Below are positions 16,639-43,101 of a stretch of DNA of 64,000 nucleotides, in pieces. The DNA lies in contig CBDBGH010000003.1 in assembly GCA_965205265.1 (NCBI GenBank), positions 1,248,001 through 1,312,000 on the forward strand, written 5' to 3'. How positions within the stretch are numbered: the stretch's first letter is position 1; each line of letters starts with the position of its first letter. A program made the translations under genes and the position numbers. Under the pieces are notes generated by a model. It was not told where the DNA came from. It ran no database searches and worked only from the letters and a program-made list of their open reading frames with translations. This DNA comes from Alphaproteobacteria bacterium. Lineage in GTDB: Bacteria > Pseudomonadota > Alphaproteobacteria > Bin95.

Positions 16639-18180
16639 ATGCAATTCGAGACCTTCGACTGGATTGCGCATAACGCCTCGCGACGGCCGGAAAAGACCGC
16701 GCTGGTCGATCTCGCAAGCGGGCGCGAAATCGACTATGCGGAGATGGACCGGCGGGTCGGGCGGCTGGCGGGCTTCCTGCGCGGCCGGCTGGGGATCGGA
16801 TCGGGCGACCGCGTGGCGCTGCTGGCGGAGAACTCCACCGACTATCTGGAAATCCAGTTCGCCTGCTTCCGCGCCGGCGCGGTGTTCGTGCCGCTCAACT
16901 GGCGGCTCACCGTGCCGGAGCTCAACTATATCGTCGGCGACGCCGCGCCGAAGGCGATGATCCACGACCGGGCCTTCGCCGAAACGGCCGCGGCCGTGCA
17001 GGCGAAGACCGGCTTCGAGCACCGGCTGGAGACCGCGGCGGACGGCAGCCCTTCGGACTATGAGGCGGCGATAGAGGAGGGGCCTTACGAAGCCGAGATG
17101 GTCCCGCAGCAGATGTCGGACCTCTCGACCATCATGTACACCTCGGGCACGACCGGCCTGCCCAAGGGCGCGCGCATCACCCACGGCATGACCTTCATCA
17201 ACACGGTGAATATCGGCATTCCGCACCGCATCTCCGCCGATTCGGTCACGCTCACCGTGCTGCCGCTGTTCCACACGGGCGGCCTCAACGCCTATGCCAA
17301 TCCCGTGCTGCATGCGGGCGGCAAGGCGGTAGTCGCGCGGAGCTTCGACCCCGAGCAGTGCTTGCGCCTGCTGGCCGACCCGGAAGCCGGCATCACCAAT
17401 TTCCTCGGCGTGCCGGCCAATTTCCAGTTCATGGCGCAGCTTCCGGCCTTCGAGCAGGCGGATTTCAGCCATGTCACTGTGTTCGGCGTCGGCGCCGCGC
17501 CTACGCCGCATGCGCTGATCGAGGTGTGGGCGGCGAGGGGCGGGCCGCTCGCCCAGGCCTATGGCATGACCGAGACCGCGCCGCTGGTCATGGCGCTCGA
17601 TCCCGTGGACGCCACGCGCAAGATCGGCTCGGCCGGCAAGCCCGTGCTCTACACCCGCACGCGGGTGATGACCGAGGACGGCCGCCAGGCCGCGCCGGGC
17701 GAGAGGGGTGAGCTTCAGGTCGCCGGGCCGAATGTGACCCCCGGCTACTGGAACAAGCCGCAGGAAACGGCCGAGTCCTTCGACGGCGAATGGCTGAAGA
17801 CGGGCGACGCCGTCTGGGTCGATGAGGAGGGCTACTACTACATCGTGGACCGCTGGAAGGACATGTACATCTCAGGCGGCGAGAACGTCTATCCGGCGGA
17901 GGTGGAGAACGTGCTCTACCGGCTGGACGGCATCGGGGAAGCCGCGGTGATCGGCATGCCGGACGAGCGCTGGGGCGAGGTCGGCTGCGCGGTCGTCGTC
18001 CGCCGCGAGGGCGCGGCGCTGGAGCCGCAGCAGATCCTCGACCATTGCGAGGGCCAGCTCGCCCGCTTCAAGCAGCCTCGCCGCATCCTGTTCATGGACG
18101 CGCTCCCCCGCAACGCCACCGGCAAGGTCCTCAAACACGAACTCCGCCGCATGCTGGCGGAGGGGGAATTGGGCGGGTAG
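16639..18180 (+). CDS. acyl-CoA synthetase (AMP-forming)
   Basis: YTSGTTGLPKG, YGMTE, KTGD, SGGENVYPAEVE, LPRNATGK. Confidence 0.92.
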   Translation: MQFETFDWIAHNASRRPEKTALVDLASGREIDYAEMDRRVGRLAGFLRGRLGIGSGDRVALLAENSTDYLEIQFACFRAGAVFVPLNWRLTVPELNYIVGDAAPKAMIHDRAFAETAAAVQAKTGFEHRLETAADGSPSDYEAAIEEGPYEAEMVPQQMSDLSTIMYTSGTTGLPKGARITHGMTFINTVNIGIPHRISADSVTLTVLPLFHTGGLNAYANPVLHAGGKAVVARSFDPEQCLRLLADPEAGITNFLGVPANFQFMAQLPAFEQADFSHVTVFGVGAAPTPHALIEVWAARGGPLAQAYGMTETAPLVMALDPVDATRKIGSAGKPVLYTRTRVMTEDGRQAAPGERGELQVAGPNVTPGYWNKPQETAESFDGEWLKTGDAVWVDEEGYYYIVDRWKDMYISGGENVYPAEVENVLYRLDGIGEAAVIGMPDERWGEVGCAVVVRREGAALEPQQILDHCEGQLARFKQPRRILFMDALPRNATGKVLKHELRRMLAEGELGG

Positions 18181-18214
18181 AAAGCTGTTTGGCTCCTTTT
18201 GTTCTCTTTTTGCA

Positions 18215-18247
18215 TTGACAGGCAGCAAACGTGAACAAACAATGGAC
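18215..18247 (+). promoter_or_regulatory. sigma70-type promoter overlapped by a putative alphaproteobacterial LexA box
   Basis: TTGACA (18215-18220)-N17-AACAAT (18238-18243); GAAC-N7-GGAC at 18233-18247. Confidence 0.5.
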
Positions 18248-18271
18248 TCCGGGTAACGGGGGTCTCCATCC

Positions 18272-18880
18272 ATGACTGAGTTGAATCGCTGGCTTGCGGA
18301 ATGGCAGCAGCCCGGCACCGTTTGGTATATCAAACGCCTTCCCGCGCATTGCATCCTTTCCAGCAGTGAAGGACGGAACGAATGGCTTATGCCGGCGCAC
18401 ATAATGGCGCGGGCATTTCCCGAACTGTATATGGTCAGAGCAGGCCATACCGACATTCGTTTCGACCTGTATGTCGATTCCCATGCGGAGCATCGTGTCG
18501 TTGGAATAGAAGGGATGAAGGGTAAGTTGCGTGGCTCGCCAAGCCGGCGGGTCTGCCTGATGGATTTGACCGGCACGCCTTCCGCGCTTCTGGACCCGGA
18601 GAATGTCGGTGCCATGACGCTGTTTGCGTTTCCGCCGGGCGGGCCGGAGAGCCCGAAATTCGGGACTAGGAGAAATGCGACGGAAGGCCGTGTCTGGATT
18701 ACGCGCACTGGCGACGAGGAGGACATCGTGGAAAATTATGTCGGCCCGGTCGATGGTCGACCTCCGATGACTTGGCGCATCCGGGAGAAGGGCTACGAGA
18801 ATATGGATGCCTTTCTGATGTCAATGGCCCGTTTGCACGCCGAGGAAAACGATGTCGAGAATGAGCTTCAGTTTGAATGA
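18272..18880 (+). CDS. stand-alone EcoRII N-terminal (effector-binding, B3-like) domain protein
   Basis: WL...YIKRL, FP, VDSH, LLDPENVGAMTLFAF, VW...DEEDIVE...G align by eye with recalled EcoRII-N; no catalytic domain follows. Confidence 0.75.
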   Translation: MTELNRWLAEWQQPGTVWYIKRLPAHCILSSSEGRNEWLMPAHIMARAFPELYMVRAGHTDIRFDLYVDSHAEHRVVGIEGMKGKLRGSPSRRVCLMDLTGTPSALLDPENVGAMTLFAFPPGGPESPKFGTRRNATEGRVWITRTGDEEDIVENYVGPVDGRPPMTWRIREKGYENMDAFLMSMARLHAEENDVENELQFE

Positions 18881-18900
18881 ACTTTAGGCAGCGTGAGTCT

Positions 18901-19770
18901 TTACCCTTTGAACACATACTCGCGGTGGTATTGGAGAAATTGTCGGTGCGGTCGGTTTTGCGGCAAATTCGGGAGCAGAAGCTGTCGGTCATTATTGAAC
19001 AATCGCAGCACATTTGTAGGGATTGATCTCTCGACAAGAAGCAGGCCGTAATCGTCGTCAACCGACATAAGACCCCGGTCGAACATCCAGTGCATCGTGC
19101 CGCTGAGCGCGAGGCCGTTGCGCAGACTGTCGGGGCCATTGTCTTTGACTGGACGAATATGCGCGGCTTGCACCTCGGACCGCCCGCCGCCGTTTATCAG
19201 CCGGATGCCGCTGAATGCGCAGGTATCGGCATACGCTGTCTTGACAGTCGATGAGAAGGCTCGGTCGCGAAAGGGCCGCTGTGACATCTGGGCGACAATT
19301 TCCCGGTGTATCTCGAACGGTTCCTGTTCCTCGTGAAACCCGTCGAAAGGAGATATTGAAGGAAGTTCGATAACACCGGAAAATCCGACGTTCAAAATTC
19401 GATAAAAGTCGTCGTCATCTATATTTCGTACAGACCGGCCGAATTGGCCTTTGTTCGTAGAACCATCAAGCTTCTGCAATGTGCGTTCATAGTAGAGACT
19501 TCCTTCACGAAATGGCACTGGACGATAAAATTCAAGGAATTTTTCAACATAGGCATAATAGTGGTACGGAAGTACATCATCTTCTTCGATATGGGACAGC
19601 TTTGCCACTGCAAAGTAGCATTGTCTTCCACCAGACCGGCGCGGTTCATAGTAAATGATCCAGTCCCCGATGGCGCTTTGCACAACCCTGAGGTAAGTCC
19701 GAGGAAAATGGTAACGAACTTCCAGCAAGTCGTCATAAACTGAGTCTATTCTTGTAGTTAGAACAACTTT
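18901..19770 (-). pseudogene. HNH putative restriction endonuclease (COG3440-like), interrupted at codons 3-5 by the TnpB element; original GTG start at 21121
   Basis: RDRAFS, CAFSG, AAHIRP...GPDSLRNGLALSGTMHWMFDRG; removing the element and one TSD copy restores MPKVVLTTRIDSVYDDLLEVRYHFP. Confidence 0.85.
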
Positions 19771-21107
19771 GGGCCTTACAAAGATGAGTTGACGGCGTCA
19801 TGCCGCCAGCATCCCTGCGTTTTCACGGATCGCAGGGGTCCGCAAGCCGGAACGCCCCTCCCCGTGCAGCAGCGCCAGTCCCCGACGCCGGATGTTGCTG
19901 CCGGCATTCGCGTCGGCATGGTCCGCATGGCCGCAGGCCGTGCACTGGAATTCGGCCCGCGAACGCCGCGAGCCGGCATCGACATGGCCGCAGGCGGCGC
20001 AGGTCCGGCTGGTATGGGCCGGGTCGACCGCGAGCAGCCGTCCCGCCTTGTAGCCGAACATGAAGCGCAGTTCCGCCCATCCCGTGGCCAGGATGACGCG
20101 GTTGAGCCCGGCCTTCTGCCGGACCCGGGCGCCCGGCTCCTCTGTCGTGCCCCGGGCGCTGCGCGTCATGTTCCGGACCCGGAGGTCCTCGACGGCGACG
20201 GTATGGGCGGCGTCGGCGACTGTCCGCGAGACATGGTGGCGCCAGTCGCACCGCATCCCGGAAAGGCGCCGCCTCGTCTTCGCCAGACGGGCGCGGGTGC
20301 GCTCCCGGCGCCCGGAGCCGCGCTTCTGGCGCGCCAGACGCCGGGCAAGGCGCTTCGCCCTCGCCTCCAGCCGCCGCGTATCCGGGGCATGGAACAGGCG
20401 GGCTTCCGGCCCCGGACCGCTCGCCGCCACCTGGCCAGCGTTCATGTCCACCCCGATGACGCTGTCGTCATCCTCGTGGACCGCCGGCGCCGGGACCCGG
20501 TAGCAGACCACGGCGTACCACTTGCCGGCCTCGCGCTTCAGCACCGCCGAGACCGGCTCGCCATCCCCATGCGGGTTGCCGCCCCGCCGGCGGACCGCAA
20601 GCGGGCCGAAACCCGGAAGGCGCAGGCAGGCCGCGCCGGACCCGCAGTCCGCGCCGGGCCGGGCCCGGTCCTCCAGCCTCACCCCCGAGACGAAGGAGAG
20701 GCTGTCGAACCGCCGGCGGGACCGGAACCGGGGAAAACCCGGCTTCTGGCCCGCCTTCACCCGCCGGAAGAAGCCCTTCATCGCCTCGTCCAGGCGCTTC
20801 AGCGTCCCGCGCTGCACGGCGACCGGAACGGCCGCCATCTCGGGGTCCTCCCGGCGGCACACCGTCAGGCTCTTCGCCTGGTCGATATAGGAGAGCGACC
20901 GCCCGGCCAGATGCCAGGCGTCGCAGCGTTCCTGAAGGGCGGCGTTGTACAACTGCCGCTGCGCCTCCAGAACCCGCTCCAGACGCCGCCAAACGGACCG
21001 GCGGCCCGGCAGAAGCCGGAATACCACCTGACGGTGCGTGAAGACCTCGCTCATGCGGCCGAACTGGATACGATACACGGCAATGTCAACTTACCTTTGT
21101 AAGCCCC
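19771..21107 (-). mobile_element. non-autonomous TIR element (IS1595-like ends) carrying only tnpB
   Basis: TIRs at 19771-19793 and 21085-21107 (20/23 match); exact 8-bp TSD ACAACTTT at 19763-19770 and 21108-21115. Confidence 0.9.
19798..21054 (-). CDS. tnpB: RNA-guided endonuclease TnpB
   Basis: LYNAALQER, GFPRFR, RuvC GVDMN / VAVEDL / HADANA, zinc finger CAACG...CTACG, QKAGLNR; ATG at 21054. Confidence 0.93.
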   Translation of the reverse strand: MSEVFTHRQVVFRLLPGRRSVWRRLERVLEAQRQLYNAALQERCDAWHLAGRSLSYIDQAKSLTVCRREDPEMAAVPVAVQRGTLKRLDEAMKGFFRRVKAGQKPGFPRFRSRRRFDSLSFVSGVRLEDRARPGADCGSGAACLRLPGFGPLAVRRRGGNPHGDGEPVSAVLKREAGKWYAVVCYRVPAPAVHEDDDSVIGVDMNAGQVAASGPGPEARLFHAPDTRRLEARAKRLARRLARQKRGSGRRERTRARLAKTRRRLSGMRCDWRHHVSRTVADAAHTVAVEDLRVRNMTRSARGTTEEPGARVRQKAGLNRVILATGWAELRFMFGYKAGRLLAVDPAHTSRTCAACGHVDAGSRRSRAEFQCTACGHADHADANAGSNIRRRGLALLHGEGRSGLRTPAIRENAGMLAA

Positions 21108-21139
21108 ACAACTTTCGGCACAGCGCAGGGCCTCTTGCC

Positions 21140-21177
21140 ATATGATTTTGTTATTCAATTACAACAAAAAATCATAT
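21140..21177. promoter_or_regulatory. AT-rich inverted repeat upstream of the original HNH start
   Basis: ATATGATTTT-N18-AAAATCATAT. Confidence 0.4.
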
Positions 21178-21325
21178 CAGACAACACAGGTCAGCTTTGG
21201 ACCATGCGCCGGTAACCCGCCTTTCGGAGACGCATGACAATTTCCGTGGGCTTGAATCAATGATTTTCAACGGAGGCAAAGCGTCGGGTCGGTCCCGGAC
21301 GGCAGGAGTATGCGCCGATTGCCGG

Positions 21326-22261
21326 TTATCCCTCCGGCGCCTTTTCCTGCGCCGTCGCATCCCATTCGAATTTCGACGCCCGGGCCAGCCGTTCGACGTC
21401 CACCACGCCGGTCAGGCGGCGGCCCTCGACGATCCAGGTCGGGTAGCGCCGGATGTCCTGGACCGTGCAGGCGGCGGTGAGGGGGCCGTTCGGGCCCGAG
21501 GGGGCGCATTCGGTATAGGGCAGCCGTTTGGCGGAGGCGGTGAAGAGCGCCTTCTGCTCCTGGCAGGCCCGGCACCAGTAGGCGCCGTAGAAGCGCGCGC
21601 CGCTTTCCTGCAAATGGGCCGCAAGCGCCTTGAGATAGGGGTCCTCCGGGCCGGCGGCGGGATCGAAGAGGCCGCTGAAATGCAGGTGAAGGCCGAGAAC
21701 CAGCACGAGGGCGGCGCTGACCGGGAACAACAGGGTCCGGCGCCACCCCCGCTCCGGCGGTTGCGAGGGGCGGCGCAGGACCGCGAGCAGGAACAGCAGG
21801 TTCATCAGCGCGAAGGAGGCAAGGCAGTATTCGCAGACCGCCCCGATCTCGAAGACCGATACCAGGGTGAGGAACCAGCTCACCCCGAAGCCGACGCAGG
21901 CGACGAGAAACAGAGGCCCCCATGCCGACGGCCGGCTGCGCAGGCGCCACGCCAGACCGGCAAGAAGCGCGTAGGTAAGCAGGCCCCAGAGCGCCATCGG
22001 CAGGCCGAGCAGGGTGGACCACCGGCTCGACTGCACGATGTCGCACTCCGACTCCGCCCCGCACCAGGCCGGATGCTCGCCGAACCAGGCGACCAGAGTC
22101 AGATAGCCGGTGAGCAGGACGCCGGCTGCCGCCAGGACGAGAATCCCGTTGTCGAGGGACAGTATCGCGCGCGCCGGCGCCCGGGAGGCGGCTGCGGCCG
22201 GCTTCGGGGCAGCCGCGGCCCGGCCGCGGCGGGCGCTCGGTCGTTTGCGCTTTCTGGGCAT
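21326..22261 (-). CDS. vitamin K epoxide reductase (VKOR) fused to a thioredoxin-like domain
   Basis: C-GAESE-C, CEYC, FYGAYWCRAC, YPTW; several transmembrane segments. Confidence 0.9.
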   Translation of the reverse strand: MPRKRKRPSARRGRAAAAPKPAAAASRAPARAILSLDNGILVLAAAGVLLTGYLTLVAWFGEHPAWCGAESECDIVQSSRWSTLLGLPMALWGLLTYALLAGLAWRLRSRPSAWGPLFLVACVGFGVSWFLTLVSVFEIGAVCEYCLASFALMNLLFLLAVLRRPSQPPERGWRRTLLFPVSAALVLVLGLHLHFSGLFDPAAGPEDPYLKALAAHLQESGARFYGAYWCRACQEQKALFTASAKRLPYTECAPSGPNGPLTAACTVQDIRRYPTWIVEGRRLTGVVDVERLARASKFEWDATAQEKAPEG

Positions 22262-42307: not shown

Positions 42308-42345
42308 GCAGGCGCGGCGCGCAGGCAAGCGGGAGGACAAGGAAC

Positions 42346-43101
42346 ATGCGTTGCAGCGGAAAGGTCGCAATCGTCACCGGCGGAGCCATGGGTATCGGCC
42401 GCGCCGTCGCGGAAGGGCTGCTCGCGGAAGGCGCGAATGTGGTCATTGCCGACCGCGCGGGCGCGGCGGAGGCCGCAAAGGCGCTCGACAACGCCGGGAA
42501 CGCCGTCATCGGCGTCGCCTGCGACGTGTCGAGCCGGGACGACACCGAGGCCATGGCAGGGGCCGCGCTGGAGGCGTTCGGCCGCATCGACGTGCTGGTC
42601 AACAATGCCGGCATCTACTCCTCGCTCAAGACCGGGCCCTTCGAGGAACTGGATATCGAGGAGTGGCGGCGCGTGCTCGATGTGAATGTCATCGGGCAGG
42701 CGATGGCGACCCGCGCGGTCGTCCCGGCCATGCGCCGGCAGGGCGGGGGCTCGGTCGTCAATTTCTCGTCGGGCACGCCGTTCAAGGGCGTTCCGTTCCT
42801 GCTGCACTATGTGGCGAGCAAGGGCGCGGTCAACGCGATGACCAAGGCGCTGGCGAAGGAACTCGGCGGCGCGGGCATTCGGGTCAATGCGGTGGCGCCC
42901 GGCTTCACGCTCTCCGACGGCGTGCTGGCGAATCCCCACCAGCTTGAAACGCTCCGGGACATCTCGCTTCAGGCGCGCGTCATCCAGCGCGACCAGCACC
43001 CGGCGGACGTCGTGGGCGCGGTGGTCTTCTTCGCGTCCGGAGAGTCCGACTTCGTCACCGGGCAAACCCTCGTCGTGGACGGCGGCGCCTATTTCCACTG
43101 A
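42346..43101 (+). CDS. SDR oxidoreductase
   Basis: TGGAMGIG, NNAG, YVASK. Confidence 0.92.
   Translation: MRCSGKVAIVTGGAMGIGRAVAEGLLAEGANVVIADRAGAAEAAKALDNAGNAVIGVACDVSSRDDTEAMAGAALEAFGRIDVLVNNAGIYSSLKTGPFEELDIEEWRRVLDVNVIGQAMATRAVVPAMRRQGGGSVVNFSSGTPFKGVPFLLHYVASKGAVNAMTKALAKELGGAGIRVNAVAPGFTLSDGVLANPHQLETLRDISLQARVIQRDQHPADVVGAVVFFASGESDFVTGQTLVVDGGAYFH

Follow-up and report, generated by a model that had tools for sequence, protein, structure and literature searches.

A tnpB gene within IS1595-type inverted ends: a probable non-autonomous cassette moved in trans in an alphaproteobacterial genome

Introduction

TnpB is the ancestor of Cas12 and is known for restoring IS605 and IS607 elements that have undergone scarless excision. 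How, then, does a tnpB gene move when it lies between terminal inverted repeats (TIRs) and is flanked by a target-site duplication? The question is raised by a tnpB gene in an Alphaproteobacteria bacterium, within a stretch of 64,000 nucleotides (hereafter the window; C3:1248001-1312000) of a 5.7-Mb, 3-contig assembly (G000) that is 98.98% complete. We propose that the gene is carried by a non-autonomous cassette of the IS1595 group, that it derives from an IS605-type tnpB, and that the cassette is moved in trans by an IS1595-type DDE transposase. On the sequence evidence presented below, we give this reading a probability of roughly 0.8.

Results

The tnpB unit and its insertion site

The unit spans 1337 bp (19771-21107 of the window), and tnpB is the only gene inside it. 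The features of the unit and of its insertion site are as follows.

19763 to 19770, no strand: 8-bp target-site duplication ACAACTTT, copy on the tnpB 3′ side, identical to 21108-21115
19771 to 19793, minus strand: right-end TIR when tnpB is read forward, on the tnpB 3′ side; its inward sequence is GGGCCTTACAAAGATGAGTTGAC
21085 to 21107, minus strand: left-end TIR, on the tnpB 5′ side, with the minus-strand sequence GGGGCTTACAAAGGTAAGTTGAC
21108 to 21115, no strand: second copy of the 8-bp target-site duplication ACAACTTT, an exact match to 19763-19770
19798 to 21054, minus strand: tnpB, 418 amino acids from ATG (426 from an in-frame GTG at 21078), with the RuvC D-E-D residues and CxxC...CxxC intact
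19771 to 19990, minus strand: omegaRNA-like 3′ region overlapping the tnpB end, with a CCGUGAA motif and an upstream hairpin, predicted from sequence
19790 to 19808, minus strand: small conserved hairpin UGGCGGC-AUGAC-GCCGUCA, called terminator-like by a scan
18901 to 19770, minus strand: body of the HNH_2 endonuclease gene that the insertion interrupts
21116 to 21121, minus strand: detached 5′ part of the HNH gene, with its GTG start codon (21119-21121) and the CCG codon after it, collinear with the orthologue in genome G016 (L045)

An original prediction, made from the letters of the window, had described 23-bp inverted ends with an exact 8-bp duplication and had claimed that removing the unit together with one duplication copy restores the HNH reading frame. 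Both claims were borne out. The repeats GGGCCTTACAAAGATGAGTTGAC and GGGGCTTACAAAGGTAAGTTGAC were identical at 20 of 23 positions, and a degenerate 23-mer matched the window twice, compared with 0.00 matches expected from 100 dinucleotide-preserving shuffles. Removal of 19771-21115 in silico left an open minus-strand frame of 302 codons. An uninterrupted HNH orthologue, 79% identical, was present in G016, another species of the same genus, and serves as a proxy for the empty site that the prediction had proposed to find in relatives. The junction was collinear codon by codon, reading V-P-K-V-V-L-T-T-R-I-D-S in the restored gene and V-P-K-A-V-L-T-T-R-V-D-S in G016, indicating that the insertion parts the GTG start codon from the remaining gene.

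Contigs of other sequencing runs were also compared with this locus. The unit was found at an identity of at least 99% in contigs of three other runs, and one contig of 332 nt bridged the junction between the HNH gene and the unit. Contigs of runs X3 and X7 broke at 19767-19771 and 21107-21117 and then continued into flanks matching other insertion sites. An empty allele was sought in contigs of four runs over 18800-21900, where no joint spanning the unit was seen, the uncovered parts being uninformative.

The HNH gene itself lies in an island of low guanine-plus-cytosine (GC) content, with values of 0.45-0.56, or 0.45-0.61 when taken over 18000-19770 and 21116-21250 of the window; GC content is approximately 0.67-0.70 around the island and 0.72-0.75 within the tnpB unit. 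Its product matched the NCBIfam model 'phosphorothioated DNA-binding restriction endonuclease' with 74 bits, below the cut-off of 180.

Copies of the unit in the genome

Across G000, the 23-mer pattern matched 33 times at up to 3 mismatches, while control matches numbered 0. The genome contained seven units with the full 1337 bp, plus a copy cut short after 518 bp, and each of the other six full copies differed from the window copy at exactly one position. Six of the seven full units were flanked by different, perfect 8-bp duplications, which read AAAGTTGT, TTCGAGGT, AAACGTTC, AAAGCAGA, TTCTACGA, and AAAGGAAA in tnpB orientation. The genome copies ended exactly at the outer edges of the repeats. 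The search for further copies with other duplications, which had been suggested from the window, was thus answered within the same genome, and the possibility that the TIR-flanked copy was a one-off did not apply. Recent multiplication has brought the unit to seven full copies in this genome.

Enzymes of the usual tnpB partners were then sought. Consistent with the predicted lack of tnpA, the unit held no second gene, and Pfam Y1_Tnp (PF01797) had 0 matches in G000, compared with matches in 6 of 14 control genomes. As regards an IS607-type partner, the only resolvase adjoining a copy was a serine-recombinase gene that one tnpB unit had itself split. Other tnpB families were absent from G000 at E <= 1e-5.

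The copies are unevenly placed. Seven of the eight, including the truncated one, lie at C3:4697103-5307688, within the last 14% of the chromosome contig; the window copy stands alone at 0.23 of the contig, and six of the other seven share one orientation. This clustering may reflect local hopping. The full copy without a duplication (C3:4855744-4857080) has AACACGTT on one side and AATGCGTA on the other, and lies 5.7 kb from the truncated copy (4849554-4850072), an arrangement that is consistent with a rearrangement between copies.

IS1595 elements and miniature elements with the same ends

A search of the same genome for an autonomous element with a DDE_Tnp_IS1595 transposase and matching ends, likewise proposed from the window, yielded a candidate helper. 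This single-copy element of 2840 bp, termed IS1595-A (C3:1919671-1922510), has perfect 23-bp repeats GGGGATTACAAAGATGACTTGAC and an 8-bp duplication TCATGTTT. Its repeats agree with those of the tnpB unit at 20 of 23 positions for the right end (19771-19793) and at 19 of 23 for the other. An open reading frame (ORF) of 332 amino acids within it matched DDE_Tnp_IS1595 (142.6 bits) and Zn_ribbon_IS1595, as well as NCBIfam transpos_IS1595 with 204.7 bits against a cut-off of 75. An 8-bp duplication is typical of the IS1595 family at large.

Six further IS1595 DDE genes were present in G000. One element, IS1595-B, spans 2836 bp, has ends beginning GGGGATTATATAC, and showed 8-bp duplications in both of its two full copies. 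The 2840- and 2836-bp elements are far longer than their transposase genes of approximately 1 kb require. The passengers of IS1595-A (L009:1001-3840) include a lipoprotein-like ORF of 277 amino acids, whose matches to TbpB_B_D and Slam-dependent-lipoprotein models fell below the curated cut-offs.

The same family of ends also bounded 15 MITE-like pairs (MITE, miniature inverted-repeat transposable element), 192-586 bp long, 11 of which had perfect 8-bp duplications. Examples on C3 lie at 1205672-1205919, 42319-42552, and 4278783-4278974. The MITEs fold as long palindromes (−116 to −137 kcal/mol), and an interior unit of approximately 95 bp had blastn matches at well over 100 places in the genome. 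The duplication TCATGTTT (complement AAACATGA) is common to IS1595-A and several MITEs, at C3:1919671, 293197, 42319, 5413311, and others, and these sites have similar flanks (..atgTCATGTTTtgtcatg), so that a repeated sequence may be the preferred target. A MITE interior was also considered as the host of the unit, and this candidate was rejected: its subterminal similarity to IS1595 elements or MITEs did not leave the range of shuffled sequence, and the MITE palindromes are unrelated to the tnpB 3′ region.

The TnpB protein

The TnpB of the unit matched Pfam OrfB_IS605 (PF01385; 51.8 bits, cut-off 30.5), Pfam Cas12f1-like_TNB (PF07282; 52.5 bits, cut-off 26.3), and NCBIfam guided_TnpB (182 bits, cut-off 100). 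It remained below the cut-offs of NCBIfam IS200_TnpB (120 bits vs 425) and IS607_TnpB (79 bits vs 350). Pfam HTH_OrfB_IS605, present in 10 of the 12 outgroup TnpBs scanned, was not matched by the cassette TnpB. In an alignment of four sequences of the clade, D203, E289, and D381, together with C352, C355, C371, and C374, were invariant (numbering of the 418-residue form), in agreement with the predicted RuvC acidic residues and zinc finger. We take the three acidic columns to be the catalytic triad from the motifs GVDxN, VxxE, and HADxNA. The ATG lies 30 bases from the left-end repeat, the distance that had been estimated at about 30 bp.

The tnpB frame was open in all seven full genome copies, and the ratio of nonsynonymous to synonymous substitution rates (dN/dS) was 0.27-0.48 in 21 of 21 pairs within the tnpB clade. 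These values point to purifying selection on the tnpB of the cassette. The C-terminal tail is variable, and its frame differs between clade members.

Relatives and phylogeny

At the family level, tnpB relatives were found in 4 of 37 genomes, counting G000; the order-level set consisted of the same 37 genomes. In G016, tnpB copies showed amino acid identities of 78%, 75%, and 55-63%, and all were flanked by GGG(G/A/C)CTTACA(C/A)AGA(A/C)AG(G/C)TTGAC, with 8-bp duplications (ATAATTCC and TTTTTCAT) at two of three full units. Of 401 genomes sampled from the class, 8 had a match at E <= 1e-40, and identity above 50% occurred only in G425, a member of a different family. Its copy, 57% identical, lies in a 1382-bp unit with ends GGGGCTTATATCGATTACTTGAC, and short MITE-like pairs with GGGGCTTATATCGATTACTTGAC-type ends are also present in that genome. 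G425 further holds a 960-bp internally deleted cassette (L042, G425:C24, 1143-2102) that has kept both ends and the 3′ third of tnpB, including the omegaRNA-like region.

A metagenome scan gave 45 loci. Eight had identities of 59-75%, and six of these had the end motif; of the remaining two, one had a variant repeat (20/20 inverted match) and one, on a contig ending inside the gene, had no motif. Among the 37 loci at 24-41% identity, none had the end motif, and the best 20-mer inverted matches were 13-16 of 20, except at L072. This metagenome contig (52-1465) encodes a TnpB at 31% identity with an 18/20 inverted match of a different type, GTCGATCTGGACACGGCAGT, and may represent another TnpB lineage with inverted ends. 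A scan of genome contigs with the single TnpB protein gave only relatives at or below 37% identity, and a plasmid collection gave only relatives at or below 53%, none with the inverted ends. Over all sources, 10 of 16 full-length units had a perfect 8-bp duplication.

In a quick IQ-TREE search with 45 protein rows, for which 12 further short rows had been set aside, the 10 repeat-flanked rows fell on one side of a branch with a Shimodaira-Hasegawa-like approximate likelihood ratio test (SH-aLRT) value of 100 and a stem length of 0.66. The TIR-flanked tnpBs thus form one branch, as the original prediction had proposed to check with a tree, and the close homologues carry inverted ends, so that the opposing case of close homologues in plain IS605 ends did not arise. 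The nearest outgroup proteins were of IS605 type at 30-39% identity. Among 12 outgroup loci, Y1_Tnp was adjacent in two, one of them within the nearest group, and none had an IS1595 DDE gene. Their right ends consist of a hairpin followed by GATGT(C/T)AAC.

Transposases resembling that of IS1595-A (57-74% identity) were present in all four genomes that hold the tnpB clade. The corresponding element in G016 (L095) has related ends and an 8-bp duplication, AAAAAATA.

The 3′ region and a candidate omegaRNA

Next, we analyzed the region overlapping the tnpB end. The motif CCGUGAA (19822-19828) was invariant in 14 of 14 clade members. It is read in different codon frames, as C-CGT-GAA in G000 and CC-GTG-AA in L013, indicating that the conservation is one of the nucleic acid and not of the protein. 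A hairpin lies directly upstream of the motif in all 14 members, and its stem carries compensatory changes (UCCG/CGGA, CCGG/CCGG, UGCC/GGCA, UCGC/GCGA, and UCGG/CCGA). In the small hairpin at 19790-19808, the loop contains the tnpB stop codon, and the 3′ arm takes in the first 4 nt of the right-end repeat; one of its pairs varies on both sides in 3 of 14 sequences (G-C 8, G-U 3, A-U 3). The covariation term of RNAalifold across the whole 3′ region was small (−0.71). From these features, the cassette looks to have kept an omegaRNA scaffold across the tnpB end. Rfam gave no credible match for the region; hits to LAGLIDADG-2 (29.7 bits, gathering score 94.9) and to a plasmid antisense RNA (E 0.95) were treated as chance. 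A promoter scan found no sigma-70-like sites in the unit.

Pairing between the right-end repeat and a segment upstream of it was also examined. RNAduplex gave −7.4 kcal/mol for cognate and −5.0 kcal/mol for non-cognate combinations, and the best ungapped run was 8.5 vs 7.4 paired bases (8 repeat types, permutation p ~0.025). Pairing of the repeat core with the upstream segment is suggested at most, and we do not rely on it. In the flanks of the units, no conserved 4-5-mer and no motif resembling a target-adjacent motif (TAM) was seen. By hand tally, G occupied position −1 in 9 of 10 flanks, and a pyrimidine followed the duplication in 9 of 10.

Discussion

How the cassette would move

The ends, the duplications, and the lack of a Y1 or IS607-type enzyme lead us to suggest cut-and-paste transposition by a DDE enzyme acting in trans, as the original prediction had proposed for an IS1595-type transposase; that proposal now has in silico support from the ends, the copies, IS1595-A, and the tree. 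The unit would be a 'mobile insertion cassette', in which two 23-bp TIRs enclose one passenger, namely an intact tnpB with a guide-RNA-like 3′ region. As the unit has no transposase of its own, an IS1595-type enzyme, for which the 332-residue protein of the element at C3:1919671-1922510 is the best candidate in the same genome, would bind the common repeats and make staggered target cuts 8 bp apart, giving rise to the 8-bp duplication. The lineage would have arisen from ordinary IS200/IS605-type tnpB elements through loss of the Y1-transposase ends, and its later evolution would have taken place between IS1595-type ends, under purifying selection on tnpB. The only type of transposase found inside this family of ends was that of IS1595.

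Several points weigh against this proposal. Beyond the 23-bp repeat, the unit no longer resembles the IS1595 elements or MITEs, and subterminal scores lie within the shuffle range. The candidate helper is single-copy, and its ends are not identical to those of the unit; a different IS1595 relative, or one lost in the meantime, could be the true helper. In the stretches fetched from G425, G004, and G008, the latter being two of the three other same-genus genomes with the tnpB clade, no IS1595 element with clearly matching ends was found. A perfect duplication was missing at six of the 16 full-length units. In the tree, the repeat-flanked group is defined by the very feature that is counted, and its members are mutual closest relatives, so the tree shows clustering and not a count of independent origins. 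As for the flank pattern (G at −1, a pyrimidine behind the duplication), it resembles the target preference of a transposase rather than a TAM. Finally, the movement in trans, the identity of the transposase, the production of an omegaRNA, and the target of TnpB are all inferred from sequence.

Three other explanations were weighed. It is quite improbable that a different DDE family that also duplicates 8 bp moves the unit, with the likeness to IS1595 ends due to shared ancestry of the ends or to coincidence. In favor of such a family are the inexact match to the helper ends (19-20/23), the lack of an identified IS1595 element with matching ends in G425, and the unusual load of insertion sequences in G000, where one of approximately 1524 bp (e.g., C3:3935920-3937443) matched more than 60 times, almost always at full length and with approximately 100% identity. 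In contrast, ends of this family with 8-bp duplications occur on three kinds of element, namely the tnpB units, the MITEs, and two IS1595 elements, and the sole transposase gene found inside such ends is of IS1595 type. G016 likewise has an IS1595-type transposase within related ends, and the end motif had no control matches in the genome.

We consider it very improbable that the unit is an IS200/IS605 element of the IS1341 type that entered a tiny MITE by accident and moves by Y1 'peel and paste', the ends and the duplication being those of the MITE only. The copies stop at the outer repeat edges, six of seven with new and different duplications, Y1 TnpA is absent from the genome, and the composite architecture is kept down to 55% protein identity. 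Furthermore, none of the eight genome copies stopped at the inner TTGAC/GTCAAC while lacking the outer repeat, and the distance from the conserved GGAACC/GATCC motif to the terminal GTCAAC is, by hand count, approximately 44 nt in the cassette compared with approximately 77 nt in the sister elements. What speaks for such nesting is that the inner 5-6 bp of the repeats (TTGAC/GTCAAC) are similar to the GTCAAC with which the right ends of canonical sister elements close, so that a nested insertion is plausible as the origin of the lineage; the inner repeat also resembles a TTGAT-type TAM. The third explanation, that tnpB is a decaying passenger without present function carried along by transposon ends, deserves little credence: the D-E-D triad and zinc finger are invariant, the dN/dS values and open frames were described above, and the 3′ region combines an invariant motif with a hairpin showing compensatory changes, against which stand the lack of a TAM-like flank motif and the variable C-terminal tail with its differing frames. 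We retain the IS1595-mobilized cassette as the preferred reading.

Where the guide would come from

The likeliest source of the guide, by analogy with other TnpBs, would be a read-out across the right-end repeat into the duplication and the flanking DNA. In the 2023 survey of Altae-Tran et al. (PMC10691335), the 3′ ends of DDE-linked tnpB genes are placed within 250 bp of the transposon end. The right end of the IS605-type sister elements, and hence their scaffold, terminates in ...GATGTCAAC, and the cassette has two candidate counterparts of this terminus: the invariant GAUCCGUGAAAAC, 48 nt inside the end, and GUCAAC, the inner 6 nt of the right-end repeat. There are three candidate guide registers: the guide could start behind GUGAAAAC, behind GUCAAC, or beyond the outer end.

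The comparison with the sister elements suggests an ancestral right-end terminus that is now internal to the cassette, in which case the guide would be a fixed sequence. We regard it as unlikely that a fixed stretch of the cassette, in place of flanking DNA, indeed fills the guide slot. In the GUCAAC register, the outer portion of the repeat would serve as a 17-nt 'guide'. Both ends of the autonomous IS1595 element share its first 12 nt exactly and are also its best non-self matches in the genome (2 mismatches); the left end of the cassette differs from it at 3 positions, including 2 and 4. For the internal register, a hypothetical 20-nt guide had no genome match better than 3 mismatches, and those with 3 mismatches look like GC-rich noise. 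If a fixed guide were used, TnpB would be hard-wired to transposon ends, whether of the helper or of its own family, and might, for example, aid excision or compete, rather than home into empty flanks. Such a task would be new for an RNA-guided nuclease carried by a DDE transposon.

Relation to known systems

According to the main text of the 2023 survey (Altae-Tran et al. 2023 PNAS, PMC10691335), six branches of TnpB are associated with DDE transposases (DDE-1 to DDE-6), all with inverted terminal repeats; DDE-2, -3, -5, and -6 are recently mobile, and solo TnpBs lie within ends nearly identical to those of transposase-bearing elements, for which mobilization in trans was proposed. The present units resemble these branches in their symmetrical inverted repeats, the closeness of the tnpB 3′ end to one transposon end, the solo state, and recent mobility, and differ from what is set out there in that the probable partner is IS1595 and the transposase is absent from every unit seen, all being non-autonomous. 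The DDE family named in that text is IS630, and passages of a 2026 OMEGA review name ISL2, IS630, and IS1031 as partners and describe the association of OMEGA systems with DDE transposons as rare in prokaryotes (PMC13565253). IS1595 occurs 0 times in the main text of the survey, the branch lists being in its supplements (PMC10691335).

A literature search for TnpB with ISXO2, DDE_Tnp_IS1595, PF12762, or IS1016 found no pairing, and co-mentions of TnpB and IS1595 were incidental only, as judged mostly from the search listing. The tnpB clade described here could be one of DDE-1 to DDE-5. IS1595 adds a new transposase partner for TnpB, unless the supplements of the 2023 survey already list it. 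In this respect, the original prediction needs amendment: it had treated capture by TIR transposons as the pattern of eukaryotic Fanzors. The capture itself stands, and Fanzors show it too; novelty among bacteria does not, because the kind was already reported for prokaryotes in 2023, and what remains of it is a partner outside the main text of that survey (PMC10691335).

Compared with IS1341-type solo tnpB elements of the IS200/IS605 group, the cassette likewise consists of a single tnpB with an omegaRNA-like 3′ region, and its nearest outgroups are of this type, one with an adjacent Y1 TnpA. Unlike them, it has inverted ends and duplications, features that IS200/IS605 elements lack according to the review passages cited above (PMC13565253), and its TnpB is without HTH_OrfB_IS605 and below the IS200_TnpB cut-off. 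With the IS1595 family and its MITE or passenger derivatives, the cassette shares 23-bp ends of the form GGGG...TTGAC and 8-bp duplications, whereas it has no transposase gene and its passenger is an RNA-guided nuclease. In ISfinder, the ISNwi1 subgroup of this family has ends GGnnATTAT and passenger genes, and the cassette may belong to it. Similarly to Fanzors, which are TnpB homologues inside DDE transposons that make target duplications (PMC13565253), the cassette combines such a nuclease with such ends; unlike them, it is bacterial and compact (418 amino acids), and its nearest relatives are bacterial IS605-type TnpBs.

The cassette would thus offer a clean and recently active natural case, with copies, an intact nuclease, a candidate helper in the same genome, and diverged relatives. 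It is a tractable system in which to ask what TnpB does for a DDE transposon, and how a guide is acquired at an end made up of an inverted repeat, bound by the transposase, with an 8-bp duplication behind it.

Additional observation

At one of the more distant loci (L035, G069:C16:807955-812070), a TnpB-like ORF of 540 amino acids (minus strand, 1150-2769; 39% identity) is followed on its 3′ side by four copies of a 36-nt repeat, GTTCGTCCGCCCCCGGAAGCGGCGACTTGGGTGGAC, the last of them degenerate, with spacers of approximately 30 nt. This is a CRISPR-like mini-array adjoining a TnpB/Cas12-like gene.

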